A stretch of DNA of 64,000 nt from Alphaproteobacteria bacterium (GCA_965228895.1 OZ245842.1:4096001-4160000), one strand, 5' to 3'; shown: positions 43,874 through 57,467, counted from the stretch's first letter. A program made the numbers and translations. Notes: a model not told the origin generated them from the letters alone.

Positions 43874-45100
43874 TCAGCGACTTATCGCGTTGAGCGTTTC
43901 CAGCGCGATCATGGTTTCCTCATTGGTCGGCACCACCCACGCGGAAACCGAACTGCTTGGCGTTGTAATGCACGGACCGCCCTGCCGGTTAGCTGTGTCG
44001 TCCAAATCGACGCCCAGCCACGCTGCATCGCGGCAGACCCTCTCTCGGATGCCAACGGCGTTTTCACCAATGCCCGCCGTGAAGACGAGCCCGTCTATGC
44101 CGCCCAACGCCGAACACAACGCGCCGAGCTCCCGCCCGATGCGGTAGACGAAGAGGTCGAGTGCCGTTCTTGCCGCCGGTTCGTTGCTGTCCAACAGGTC
44201 CCGGATATCGCTGCTGATCCCGGAGACGGCGAGCAGGCCGGACCGATGGTAAAGCAGATCTTCGACCGCGTCGGCCGTCATGCCGCGCTCGCGGATCAAA
44301 TGCAGGATGACGCCGGGATCGAGCCACCCGCAACGCGTGCCCATCACCAACCCGTCCAAGGCCGTGAAACCCATGGTCGTGTCGACACTCTTGCCGCCAT
44401 GGATGGCACACATGCTGGCGCCGTTGCCGAGATGGGCGACGACCACCCGACCGTCGGCAATCTCCGGCGCGACATCTTTTAGAGCGCGCGCGATATAGGC
44501 ATAGGACGATCCGTGGAAGCCGTAACGCCGAATGCCGTCGTCATGGAGTTCCTGGGGCAACGCCAGGCGATCAGCGACCGCCGGCCGGCCGCGATGGAAG
44601 GCCGTGTCGAAACACGCGACCTGCGGCACGTCGGGATGGGCCGCAGCGATGGCCTTGACAGGCGCCAGGTTGAGCGGCTGATGCAGTGGCGCCAGGGGTG
44701 TCAAAGCCTCCAGCTCGCGCAAGACGGCCGCGTCGATCACGATCGGCGTCGCAAAGTCGGGGCCGCCATGTACCACCCGGTGGCCGACCGCCAGCAACGC
44801 TTCGCCGTCCAACCATCCGGTGACCCAGCCCAGCAACCGATCGAAAACCCAGCCATCCGCCGTCGTGCCGACGCCGGACCAGTCTTCGTCGGCGACCGTC
44901 TCGCCTTCGTCGTTCTTGGCCGAGAAGCGCGGCGTACCGCCAAGGCCCTCAATCTGACCTCTGACCGCCAGGGCGACGTCGCCGTCCGCCGTGGCCCGAT
45001 GGATCGAGAACTTGAGGCTCGATGACCCCGCGTTGACGACGAGCAGCGAGCCCGACGGTGTCGGCCCGCGTTTGTCAGAGCGTTGGGTCTGTGGGCTCAA
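43874..45100 (-). CDS. ackA: Acetate/propionate kinase
   Basis: VNAGSSSLKF, GHRVVHGG, LAPLH, FDTAFH, HLGNGAS, FTAGIGEN; exact start uncertain. Confidence 0.93.
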   Translation of the reverse strand: MSPQTQRSDKRGPTPSGSLLVVNAGSSSLKFSIHRATADGDVALAVRGQIEGLGGTPRFSAKNDEGETVADEDWSGVGTTADGWVFDRLLGWVTGWLDGEALLAVGHRVVHGGPDFATPIVIDAAVLRELEALTPLAPLHQPLNLAPVKAIAAAHPDVPQVACFDTAFHRGRPAVADRLALPQELHDDGIRRYGFHGSSYAYIARALKDVAPEIADGRVVVAHLGNGASMCAIHGGKSVDTTMGFTALDGLVMGTRCGWLDPGVILHLIRERGMTADAVEDLLYHRSGLLAVSGISSDIRDLLDSNEPAARTALDLFVYRIGRELGALCSALGGIDGLVFTAGIGENAVGIRERVCRDAAWLGVDLDDTANRQGGPCITTPSSSVSAWVVPTNEETMIALETLNAISR

Positions 45101-46131
45101 CGAGCCGTGCGCTGATATCGCTGGGGGCTCATACCCGTCCAGTTGCGGAAGGCGCGTGAAAAGGCCGAGAGTTCGGAATAGCCGAGCGACAGCGCAACCT
45201 CGGTCAGCGGCATGCTCGCGTCGTTCATGTAGTGCAGCGCCAGTTCCTGGCGCGCGGCACGCAACAGATCCTGGAACGTCAGACCGTGGTTCTTCAATTC
45301 GCGTTGGAACGTGGCGTCGGTCATGCCCAGCACCTCTGCAATCTCCGTCAGCCCCGGCGTGCGGTCGCCCAGGTGAAGCTTGATCTGGTTGCGCACGACC
45401 GTGGCGAAGTCTTCGGGGTCGCCGCGCAACTCGCAGCGCGCGGTCAAGAACCGTTCGATAACCGAAAACAGATAGGGGTCCTGGTCGGGCATGCGCGCGT
45501 CGAGGTCGCGGCGGCGAAAGGCCAGCGCGTTGGTGCGGCGCCCGAACCTGACCGGCGCGCCGAAACGCTGCTCGTGTTCGTGCCAGTCTTCCGGCTTGTC
45601 GTGCTCGAAACGCACCTCAAGGGGCGCCCAGTCGGGACCCAGCGCGGCGCGAAAGATGTTGCGGAACATACCCAGCGACAACTCGGCGTCCTGGCGCCGG
45701 TCCTCGATGCGCGGATCGTAGATGCGGTAGCTCAGCCACAGGATATCGCTGTCCTGCAACAGGCCAAAGCTGGTCTGGCCCTGGTGCGCGGGGAAGTACT
45801 TTTCCATATTGCGAAGCGCCGCCGATAGCGTCGGCGAGCAGATAGCCGCGTATCCCAGCGCCCCCAACTGCTTGGGCTGGAACTGGTCACCGAACTGCAG
45901 GCCGAAATTGTCATGGCCGGTATGGCCCGCCGCCTCGACAAAGAGCTGGCAATAACGCTGCAGATTCAGATCGTTGAACGGATCTTCAATATCGTCGGTG
46001 CGGATGTTGGCGCGCCCGAACACCGTATCGACGTCGCCGCCGTGACGCTCGATCAGATCGATGACGCCCGTCGCCGCCGACGCCAAGACGCGTGGCGGCT
46101 CCAGCCCCGTATGCCCACCCTCAGACAGCAT
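45097..46131 (-). CDS. AraC family transcriptional regulator, divergent from the BMC operon
   Basis: C-terminal LTEVALSLGYSELSAFSRAFRNWTGMSP; probable start MLSEGG at 46131. Confidence 0.9.
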   Translation of the reverse strand: MLSEGGHTGLEPPRVLASAATGVIDLIERHGGDVDTVFGRANIRTDDIEDPFNDLNLQRYCQLFVEAAGHTGHDNFGLQFGDQFQPKQLGALGYAAICSPTLSAALRNMEKYFPAHQGQTSFGLLQDSDILWLSYRIYDPRIEDRRQDAELSLGMFRNIFRAALGPDWAPLEVRFEHDKPEDWHEHEQRFGAPVRFGRRTNALAFRRRDLDARMPDQDPYLFSVIERFLTARCELRGDPEDFATVVRNQIKLHLGDRTPGLTEIAEVLGMTDATFQRELKNHGLTFQDLLRAARQELALHYMNDASMPLTEVALSLGYSELSAFSRAFRNWTGMSPQRYQRTAR

Positions 46132-46382
46132 TGTTCTTCGCTTCCAGGGGCCGCGCTCGTGCCCAGCCCTGCCCCGGTCGAGTTTGTTGAAAAACCCTAA
46201 CAGAAAAGGCAACGGGCAGAAAACCTGGAATCCGGGCAAGATCGGTCCGCCGTCGGCAACAAATCTGTCAAATTCGGCCCATCCGGTGTCAAGCGGTCTT
46301 CCCCGAACAGTGCTTGGCTTGCTGGACTGCGACGAAGATCGCCACGTCATCGTCTCATCCTGCGGAACAAAAGGAGGCTTCC

Positions 46383-56509: not shown

Positions 56510-56791
56510 ATGTCGAACCAGGCGATTGGAATGATCGAAACCAAAGGCTTCGTTGCGGCGCTCGCCGCGGCCGATGCCATGGTCAAAGCGGCGAACGTCA
56601 CCATCGTGGCGCGCGAGGAAGTCGGCGACGGCCTTGTCGCGGTTGTCATCAAGGGCGATGTCGGCGCCGTCAAGGCGGCGACCGAAGCCGGTGCGGAGAC
56701 CGCCAACCAGGTTGGCGAGATGGTCTCCGTCCACGTCATTCCGCGGCCCCACGCCGACCTCGGCAAGTACTTCGACTCCACCGGTAAGTGA
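56510..56791 (+). CDS. BMC-H hexamer shell protein (PduA/EutM-like)
   Basis: [51 protein letters not shown]. Confidence 0.97.
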
Positions 56792-56837
56792 CGCCTCCCT
56801 CCCCGTCCCCGTCTCCGTCAGATCGGGCGAGGCGTCG

Positions 56838-57467
56838 ATGACCGAGCTACGAGTCTATCTGCCGATCCACGATCTGCAGCCACAGTTCGCGGCTTATCTG
56901 AGCTCGCCGACGCGCGCGCGCGGCTACCCGCCGTTCGAGCACGAGCACAGTCTGATCATCGAAGTCTCCCCGGCGCTGTCGATCCACCGGATCATCGATC
57001 TGGCCCTGAAGGCAGCGCCCGACATGGAGCCGGGCATCCTGTTTACCGAACGCCAGTTTGGTCTTCTGGAACTGCACTCCGAAGACGAGACGGCGCTGGC
57101 CGACGCCGGTCAGGCCATTCTCGACGGTATCGGCGCCAAGGCGGCGGACCAGTTAGCACCGACGATTTTGTTTCACGACATCATCGAGGATATCGCCGAT
57201 CAGCACGCGATCATCCTGAACCGGACCCGCGACGCCTCGATCCTGGTGCCCGGCACCTCGCTGCTGGTCTACGAAATGGCGCCCGCTCTCTTCGCCTGCG
57301 TCGCGGCGAACGAGGCCGAACGCGCGGCACCCGAAGCCGCCATCAACGATGTCCAGATGATGGGCGCGTCCGGCCGCATCTTCATGTCCGGCAGCACCGA
57401 CGACATGATCCGCGCCCGCGACACCATCACCAAAACGCTTGAGGCCATCGACGGCCGCAAGTCCTGA
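56838..57467 (+). CDS. Second BMC-T tandem-domain shell protein
   Basis: LRVYLPIHDLQPQFAAY, IEVSPA, TERQFGLLELH, AANEAERAA, GASGRIF; 209 aa. Confidence 0.9.
   Translation: MTELRVYLPIHDLQPQFAAYLSSPTRARGYPPFEHEHSLIIEVSPALSIHRIIDLALKAAPDMEPGILFTERQFGLLELHSEDETALADAGQAILDGIGAKAADQLAPTILFHDIIEDIADQHAIILNRTRDASILVPGTSLLVYEMAPALFACVAANEAERAAPEAAINDVQMMGASGRIFMSGSTDDMIRARDTITKTLEAIDGRKS

Follow-up and report, generated by a model that had tools for sequence, protein, structure and literature searches.

The operon and its relatives

We analysed a 64,000-nt stretch of an Alphaproteobacteria bacterium genome (GCA_965228895.1, OZ245842.1:4096001-4160000; hereafter the window, to whose whole length all positions refer) that carries a bacterial microcompartment (BMC) operon, predicted originally from the sequence alone. 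Genes were called from open reading frame (ORF) listings, Pfam scans, and solved-structure searches. Thirteen co-oriented genes on the plus strand (46383-57467) form a tight array with a divergent AraC-family gene upstream. Their order is solute-binding protein (SBP), ABC ATPase, two permeases, short-chain dehydrogenase/reductase (SDR), kinase, class-III pyridoxal phosphate (PLP) enzyme, aldehyde dehydrogenase (ALDH), BMC-T, a 145-residue protein, BMC-P, BMC-H, and a second BMC-T. Neighboring genes overlap or are separated by gaps of 3-91 nt, which is the spacing expected of an operon. As a consensus promoter/terminator scan of 45900-57900 returned no more sites than shuffled sequences, the operon boundaries are those given by spacing and synteny only. 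Every gene listed in the original prediction, the divergent araC included, was borne out by the Pfam and solved-structure searches. The predicted absence of eutBC, pduCDE, a glycyl-radical enzyme, and an iron-type alcohol dehydrogenase also holds, as none of these has a Pfam match among the 14 ORFs.

The locus adds one more member to the catalogued RMM2/AAUM2 microcompartment type, named after the Rhodococcus/Mycobacterium microcompartment (RMM), and does not represent a new type. Dozens of loci in Alpha- and Gammaproteobacteria are collinear with it, one of which is labelled RMM2 in the trees of Sutter et al. (2021). Given the observed gene content, homology, synteny, and conserved motifs, we infer with moderate confidence an amino-alcohol metabolosome of this class, its reactions, substrate, encapsulation, and shell formation included.

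The best Protein Data Bank (PDB) matches of all four shell proteins are M. smegmatis RMM proteins, namely MSM0275, MSM0271, MSM0272, and MSM0273. Compared with the Rhodococcus jostii RHA1 copies, the first and second BMC-T (T1 and T2), BMC-H, and BMC-P are 67%, 63%, 78%, and 46% identical, respectively. T2 is missed by the Pfam BMC model and was found through PDB 5SUH. The shell set, which comprises one BMC-H, one BMC-P, and two different tandem BMC-T(dp) proteins, is RMM-related and has the composition of RMM2/AAUM2; all shell classes are present, as had been stated. These are the only BMC and EutN_CcmL genes of the genome (5.53 Mb, one contig, 98.7% complete). The RMM/AAU-like assignment made at the outset is upheld by the shell protein matches, by the match of the kinase to 6EF6, and by the ALDH-T-145-residue-P-H-T block, which is arranged as in RHA1. 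Read from its first ATG, BMC-H has a 32-residue N-terminal extension rich in Lys, Arg, Ala, and Ser (56414-56509), which an alternative start at 56510 (MSNQAIG) removes. Most BMC-H orthologs start at MSNQA, and basic extensions are found in a minority from several unrelated lineages (loci L011, L018, L030, and L042-L044).

Table 1. Operon genes and flanking genes in the window, with the matches on which each call is based
Feature	Position	Strand	Evidence and remarks
AraC-family regulator	45097..46131	-	Pfam Arabinose_bd 6e-48 and HTH_18; ORF open to 46404
Periplasmic SBP of ABC importer	46383..47516	+	Pfam SBP_bac_6, 25.7 bits (cut-off 24.6)
ABC ATPase with TOBE_2 domain	47586..48674	+	Pfam ABC_tran 9e-32, TOBE_2 1.4e-9
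ABC permease 1	48678..49532	+	Pfam BPD_transp_1
ABC permease 2	49532..50347	+	Pfam BPD_transp_1 2.9e-13; start overlaps permease 1 stop
SDR, predicted aminoacetone/1-amino-2-propanol oxidoreductase	50366..51145	+	Pfam adh_short_C2 3e-64; PDB 6CI8/6CI9 1.9e-88
APH-family kinase, predicted amino-alcohol (1-amino-2-propanol) kinase	51168..52172	+	PDB 6EF6 4.6e-91; Pfam APH 1.9e-21
Class-III-fold PLP enzyme, predicted signature enzyme	52264..53532	+	Pfam Aminotran_3 4e-72
CoA-acylating ALDH with C-terminal encapsulation peptide	53583..55100	+	PDB 5J78 3.3e-97
BMC-T (tandem double-stacking, CcmP/CsoS1D-like), MSM0275 orthologue	55107..55718	+	PDB 5L39 5.2e-84
145-residue conserved protein, PduM-like structural/adaptor candidate	55730..56167	+	No family
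BMC-P pentamer (vertex) protein	56164..56409	+	Pfam EutN_CcmL 4e-18; PDB 5L37 (MSM0273) 5.9e-24
BMC-H hexamer protein	56414..56791	+	Pfam BMC 7e-27; PDB 5L38 (MSM0272) 1.5e-40
Second BMC-T (tandem), MSM0271 orthologue	56838..57467	+	PDB 5SUH 4.8e-85
OpuAC-type ABC system	34879-38587	-	
xsc (sulfoacetaldehyde acetyltransferase)	39065-40840	-	NCBIfam 1038 bits
AptA-like class-III aminotransferase	40898-42241	-	
MocR-type GntR/aminotransferase-fusion regulator	42356-43870	+	
Acetate/propionate kinase	43874-45100	-	Overlaps araC by 4 nt

Related loci were collected by scanning T1 against one genome per species. This gave 543 confirmed relatives, of which the best 80 (71-100% identity) were kept and searched with the 14 window proteins by tblastn; many of these loci end at contig ends or at the 10-kb flank. 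The hosts of the best 80 are Alpha- or Gammaproteobacteria, except for one Neomarinimicrobiota metagenome-assembled genome (MAG). T1 and T2 were found in all 80 loci, the 145-residue protein, BMC-P, and BMC-H in 79 each, ALDH in 77, the PLP enzyme in 74, the kinase in 66, and the SDR in 63. The transport and regulator genes follow with 62 (ATPase), 59 and 57 (permeases), 55 (SBP), and 41 (AraC). The 14-gene order of the window recurs in most of these loci, and a Paracoccaceae variant has the ABC-SDR-kinase module after the last BMC-T. In the nearest public locus (L001, a MAG labelled Alphaproteobacteria bacterium) T1 is 100% identical and the other operon proteins are 87-98% identical, so the two genomes are closely related but distinct. 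Of 401 genomes sampled evenly from the class, nine carry T1 and T2 in the paired arrangement. Sutter et al. (2021; Nat Commun, PMC8217296) list 32 RMM2/AAUM2 loci from Proteobacteria and Marinimicrobia in supplement file 4, so the remark that the type had been noted outside Actinobacteria was correct and understated. In their trees, PEL8287_02589 of strain CECT 8287 carries the label of an RMM2 pentamer. The locus of this strain, Roseovarius litorisediminis CECT 8287, is collinear with the window at 62-80% protein identity, and PEL8287_02588 is the homologue of the 145-residue protein. Two further genomes of the class, G078 and G374, were rejected as RMM2 carriers, since neither a kinase nor an SDR nor a PLP enzyme of the window type lies within 9 kb of their ALDH-T-(~800-nt gap)-P-H-T block (loci L086 and L087). 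Their T1 is 58% identical to that of the window. These blocks probably represent another BMC type with an RMM-like shell block.

The conservation of the locus bears on whether the operon could be an inactive or never-assembled remnant without a functional compartment. None of the 14 frames is broken, catalytic and targeting motifs are conserved, and the whole arrangement is kept at 55-85% protein identity over many genera, which indicates purifying selection. A search for an RNA data set containing the stretch found none, and the same genome has paralogues of the kinase and an RMM1-like PLP enzyme without shell genes, two points that would suit a remnant; set against the intact frames and the conservation, they leave it highly improbable.

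The PLP enzyme and the 145-residue protein

Sequence comparison places the PLP enzyme in a class-III clade of its own, not orthologous to the enzyme of RMM1, the type found in RHA1 and M. smegmatis. The RHA1 enzyme is 46-48% identical to the kinase-linked PLP enzymes of loci without shell genes (A. fabrum pAt, and plasmids of Acinetobacter and Chimaeribacter), whereas the window enzyme is 25-28% identical to these. In NCBIfam, the RHA1 enzyme groups with NF004799/NF004800, which are models of long kinase-aminotransferase proteins. The nearest named families of the window enzyme are putrescine and acetylornithine aminotransferases, with scores far below the cut-offs (e.g. 228 bits vs 612), and its best PDB match is a putrescine aminotransferase (5e-52). 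The two enzymes also differ in length and terminus. The RHA1 enzyme has 535 residues and the same C-terminal encapsulation peptide as the RHA1 ALDH, whereas the window enzyme has 422 residues (422-430 across 74 orthologs) and no encapsulation peptide. Compared with the RHA1 sequence, the window enzyme therefore has neither the orthology nor the C-terminal peptide of an RMM1 enzyme. Hence, the claim that the RMM-defining enzyme set is present stands at the Pfam level and fails for the PLP enzyme, which at 24% identity is no RMM1 orthologue. With only four candidates scored per genome, the clade (E<=1e-70) was found in 7 of the 401 sampled genomes of the class; in each of them it lies 2-3 kb upstream of T1, with no occurrence at another place. 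The family table of Sutter et al. (2021; PMC8217296) has a single class-III hidden Markov model, named after msmeg_0277. Our literature search, which did not reach the Mallette and Kimber papers, found no published mention of the difference between the RMM2 and RMM1 PLP enzymes.

The active-site motifs of the PLP enzyme bear on its chemistry. The R-x-PPL motif of class-III enzymes supplies an Arg to which the carboxylate of a 2-oxoacid or amino acid binds. At this position, the RHA1 and A. fabrum enzymes have the Arg of R-PPL, and E. coli putrescine aminotransferase (PatA) has that of R-x-PPL. The window enzyme has Lys instead, within the motif LQFKPG, which is kept in 74/74 PLP-enzyme orthologs of related loci. 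Its PLP lysine is intact, as are the motifs of the general fold. By context, we take the enzyme to be a putative phospho-lyase acting on a phosphorylated amino alcohol. It may instead act on an amino alcohol or aminoketone as a true aminotransferase, giving an aldehyde (lactaldehyde or methylglyoxal) directly, with the kinase acting elsewhere, for example on the acyl product or a side substrate. Axen 2014 and Ravcheev 2019 have each put forward such a scenario for RMM. The nearest characterised relatives of the enzyme, which are putrescine, acetylornithine, and ornithine aminotransferases, and the intact lysine and fold motifs agree with a transaminase. The Arg-to-Lys change, where PatA keeps its Arg, and the low scores to all named transaminase families speak against it. 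So does the kinase, which is strictly syntenic with the PLP enzyme in related loci and would lose its role. Taken together, we regard an aminotransferase as improbable.

The 145-residue protein, whose gene overlaps the BMC-P gene by 4 nt, is also encoded in RHA1 RMM1 (31% identity). An alignment of 41 orthologs reveals a conserved N-terminal amphipathic helix, a small conserved domain, a Pro/Ala-rich linker, and a C-terminal domain with an invariant TPLA-D motif. The AlphaFold (AF2) model has a mean pLDDT of 87, with a helix at residues 2-23 (~55733-55798, pLDDT 90) and two small alpha/beta units; a fold search of this model against the PDB gave no match at E<=0.001. The family was then compared with PduM, represented by PF15953, which is equated with PduM in the table of Sutter et al. 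(2021; PMC8217296), and by PduM as found in an annotated Salmonella record. Sub-threshold PF15953 matches (E<=1) occur in 16/41 orthologs at profile positions 112-153, with a best E of 4e-4. The window protein itself has no PF15953 match at E<=1, and the formal Pfam test failed. Ten orthologs scanned singly reached a top score of 17 bits against a gathering cut-off of 27. In 401 genomes of the phylum, searched as a source of PduM sequences, PF15953 has no match above the cut-off. Aligned by hhalign with 20 enterobacterial PduM sequences, the family gives Prob 54% and E 1.3e-4 over only 43 C-terminal columns; with one PduM sequence, E is 0.011. In the ESM Atlas, the nearest cluster with a name (score 0.84) has PF15953 on 21% of its members, which we take as no more than a lead. 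A 1:1 complex prediction of residues 28-145 with one BMC-P chain, run without controls, scored 0.00, which is evidence neither way.

In a 2025 mSphere study (PMC12108088), the first 23 residues of PduM were shown to be a core-targeting signal, and PduM was stated to lack known homologues outside Pdu. The sub-threshold PF15953 matches, the Atlas cluster, the hhalign alignment, the adjacency to the pentamer gene, and the parallel with the signal helix of PduM lead us to consider a PduM-like structural linker the fairly probable identity of the 145-residue protein. Combining both proteins gives a more tentative idea, which we put forward as possible though rather doubtful: RMM2 may be more than a rearranged RMM1. 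Its aldehyde-forming enzyme, with the Arg-to-Lys change at the carboxylate/phosphate site, may have evolved phospho-lyase activity independently, or may catalyze another reaction on another imported amine, and the 145-residue protein, in place of a peptide of its own, may be the adaptor that recruits it to the lumen. If so, the marine proteobacterial compartments would form a metabolosome distinct in function, and core-shell linkers of the PduM type would be a general feature not confined to Pdu.

Proposed pathway and its alternatives

The proposed pathway is based on the homology of kinase and SDR and on the logic of the kinase-PLP pairs in loci without shell genes. An AraC-family regulator of the amine type would turn the operon on. 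It is QhpR-like in NCBIfam (311 bits, cut-off 250) and 39-42% identical to AraC genes adjoining kinase/PLP loci without shell genes on Acinetobacter and Chimaeribacter plasmids. Its start is probably Met92 at 46131, since homologues align only from residues 88-104; ~250 nt separate this position from the SBP gene. A PotD/PotF-like ABC importer would bring in a small amino alcohol or aminoketone. The SBP start at 46383 is preceded by a ribosome-binding site and followed by an SRRSF twin-arginine-like signal peptide. A protein of A. fabrum pAt with a PotD/PotF family annotation shares 55% identity with the SBP, which has no match in sequence searches of the PDB and NCBIfam.

The SDR may interconvert aminoacetone and 1-amino-2-propanol, and the APH-family kinase may convert the amino alcohol to its O-phosphate ester. 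PDB entries 6CI8/6CI9 presumably represent the M. smegmatis RMM dehydrogenase, an identity that the structure search does not itself give. The M. smegmatis enzymes were reportedly characterised on 1-amino-2-propanol and aminoacetone by Mallette and Kimber. The kinase is 38% identical to the RHA1 RMM1 kinase and 44% identical to the A. fabrum pAt kinase. A longer overlapping ORF (51242..52267) was rejected as the kinase gene, as it has no Pfam match; the true frame is 51087..52172 with its start at 51168. The PLP enzyme would then remove phosphate and ammonia to give propionaldehyde, and the ALDH, sent to the lumen by its C-terminal encapsulation peptide, would convert propionaldehyde to propionyl-CoA. 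The nearest relatives of the ALDH are the acetylating aldehyde dehydrogenase 5J78 in the PDB and AdhE and EutH_ACDH in NCBIfam. Its encapsulation peptide (~55038-55097) follows a Pro/Gln-rich linker, has the motif ELRRLIAEELR in 76/76 orthologs listed, and resembles the C-terminal encapsulation peptides of the RHA1 ALDH and PLP enzyme.

The shell would be built from the one BMC-H, the one BMC-P, and the two different stacking BMC-T proteins. The PduM-like 145-residue protein may insert its N-terminal helix into the cargo core, with its body helping to tie core to shell. As the locus has neither a phosphotransacylase (PTAC) nor an alcohol dehydrogenase, propionyl-CoA (or CoA) would have to cross the shell, and the product would enter the methylmalonyl-CoA route. 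No match to the PduL-type PTAC (PF06130) was found in the whole genome, and the only PTA_PTB (PF01515) match lies within a 772-residue frame elsewhere. Two methylmalonyl-CoA-mutase-family genes of the genome could take the product onward.

The same organelle and reaction logic may serve another substrate, namely ethanolamine (via phosphoethanolamine and acetaldehyde to acetyl-CoA), serinol, alaninol, or a polyamine-derived amino alcohol, taken up with high affinity by the ABC system in a marine setting. Uptake by an ABC system with a PotD/PotF-like binding protein, not by the amino-acid or ethanolamine permease of RMM1, fits this alternative, as does the adjacency of kinase and AraC relatives from loci without shell genes to ethanolamine permeases. 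The different PLP clade adds that specificity need not match that of RMM1. On the other hand, kinase and SDR have close sequence matches in the M. smegmatis enzymes 6EF6 and 6CI8/6CI9, which were reportedly characterised on 1-amino-2-propanol and aminoacetone, and in a pure ethanolamine route no role is obvious for an SDR. We therefore consider another substrate unlikely, and 1-amino-2-propanol/aminoacetone is kept as the substrate pair of the proposed amino-alcohol metabolosome.

Several findings weigh against the amino-alcohol metabolosome. First, identity between the PLP enzyme and its RHA1 RMM1 counterpart is only ~24%, their NCBIfam neighbourhoods differ, and because the two are not orthologous, phospho-lyase activity is not transferable by homology. 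Second, targeting helices are found in only two operon products, the ALDH and the 145-residue protein. The PLP enzyme, the kinase, and the SDR (median length of orthologs, 259 residues) have no terminal extension, and the SDR has no encapsulation peptide either; the aldehyde-forming step may or may not be enclosed. Third, the genome has a separate pair of an RMM1-like PLP enzyme and a kinase as well as an SDR-kinase pair elsewhere. Fourth, the SDR has a Lys in the glycine motif and an Arg after strand 2, which by classical SDR rules point to NADP(H); an NADP(H)-type SDR would not balance an NAD+-dependent ALDH. The suggestion that SDR and ALDH balance redox without an alcohol dehydrogenase is unsupported here, and a 2024 paper (PMC11626177) describes NAD+ regeneration in RMM/AAUM as still undetermined. 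Finally, the literature searched contains no experimental work on any RMM2 locus, in agreement with the remark that the proteobacterial variant appears experimentally uncharacterised.

RMM/AAUM is among the metabolosomes in which cofactor recycling and even the signature reaction are unproven, and bench work to date concerns actinobacterial RMM1 only. As the proteobacterial form uses a different PLP enzyme clade, results from M. smegmatis are not simply transferable to it. This form is widespread, making up the best 80 of the 543 shell-protein relatives and occurring in 7 of the 401 sampled genomes of the class. With 14 genes, clear targeting peptides, and a protein that may be a linker like PduM, this compact system would be useful for learning how cargo without a signal gets enclosed. 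The discovery is modest, since the locus type is already in a public catalogue. Two points are new relative to the catalogue passages on this type, namely that the PLP enzyme has been replaced and that the 145-residue protein looks PduM-like, and both are worth following up.

Flanking genes and comparison with known systems

Upstream of the operon (34879-45100) lies a taurine/sulfoacetaldehyde-type cluster. Its acetate/propionate kinase was rejected as a conserved part of the BMC locus, as a homologue was found in only 2 of 5 carrier genomes; the Stappia homologue is apparently on another contig than the locus, although the contig mapping is uncertain. The kinase fits better with the nearby xsc, whose product is acetyl phosphate. 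Since the only PTA_PTB domain of the genome is in the 772-residue frame elsewhere, acetyl phosphate from Xsc may be converted to acetate by this kinase. The downstream region (57648-63951, minus strand) has a leucine/isovalerate cluster of enoyl-CoA hydratase, HMG-CoA-lyase-like protein, both methylcrotonyl-CoA carboxylase subunits, and acyl-CoA dehydrogenase, which appears unrelated to the compartment. Elsewhere in the genome (contig C1), an RMM1-like PLP enzyme (48% identical to that of A. fabrum pAt) is followed by an APH kinase (33% to the operon kinase) at C1:667566-669775 (L094 6492-8791), without shell genes. An SDR followed by an APH kinase (42% to the operon kinase) lies at C1:2739394-2741170 (L095 7389-9174, minus strand), among housekeeping genes and without a PLP enzyme in its vicinity. 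A third RMM1-like class-III enzyme (C1:2547426-2548682, 43% to the A. fabrum enzyme) is inside a 794-residue open frame, which may encode a kinase-PLP fusion like those modelled by NF004799/NF004800.

The 145-residue protein resembles PduM of Salmonella/Klebsiella Pdu in being a small low-complexity, putatively structural protein with an N-terminal amphipathic targeting helix, in gene position (pduM is directly upstream of pduN in Salmonella, and the 145-residue gene is directly upstream of the BMC-P gene), and in C-terminal similarity across ~43 residues. It differs in that its middle domain and linker are unlike those of PduM; the C-terminus alone aligns, below the Pfam gathering score.

Compared with RMM2/AAUM2 as catalogued, the window has the same shell set, with ALDH, class-III PLP enzyme, APH kinase, and SDR all in the locus. 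It likewise has no PTAC, no alcohol dehydrogenase, and no satellite locus, is the sole BMC of its genome, and shares the proteobacterial host and a gene order unlike that of RMM1. No difference from the catalogue's description was found at the level of gene content. The catalogue passages on this type handle the PLP enzyme at the Pfam level only, and the PLP clade and the 145-residue protein are absent from them.

RMM1, as seen at R. jostii RHA1 pRHL2 and M. smegmatis, shares with the window the ALDH-T-145-residue-P-H-T order, which is identical at RHA1, and an ALDH that is 48% identical to that of RHA1 and has the same style of C-terminal encapsulation peptide. The predicted match of the PLP-ALDH-T-unknown-P-H-T block was thus confirmed from the ALDH onward, but not for the PLP enzyme, which is non-orthologous and differs in length and encapsulation peptide as described above. 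Moreover, RMM1 has an amino-acid/ethanolamine permease and a GntR regulator where the window has an ABC importer and an AraC regulator. The kinase of RMM1 is divergent from the shell block, whereas SDR and kinase of the window are upstream inside the operon, having been correctly described as moved forward. The RHA1 pRHL2 locus (L082 3552-9041) contains an exact duplicate of the T-145-residue-P-H block, with identical protein accessions annotated twice, and the two copies flank the PLP gene.

The loci without shell genes (A. fabrum C58 pAt and the plasmids of Acinetobacter ursingii and Chimaeribacter arupi) have homologues of several window genes, with 38-44% identity in the kinase, 39-42% in AraC, 55% in the SDR, and 47-62% in the PotD/F-type ABC transporter. 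They differ from the window locus in having neither shell genes nor an acylating ALDH, and in a PLP enzyme of the RMM1-like clade (46-48% to RHA1). Their kinases adjoin PLP enzymes, AraC regulators, and either ethanolamine permeases or PotD/F transporters. On A. fabrum C58 pAt (L083 7998-15470), the module consists of a kinase, an RMM1-like PLP enzyme, an SDR, and a PotD/PotF-type ABC transporter. Papers of the 1970s in Biochem J reportedly describe the classical pathway of amino-alcohol kinase and O-phosphate phospho-lyase in Erwinia and Pseudomonas. As its transporter, SDR, and kinase are 44-62% identical to those of the A. fabrum pAt module, the RMM2 operon looks like this module for uptake and activation combined with an RMM shell-ALDH block in which the PLP enzyme is a different one.

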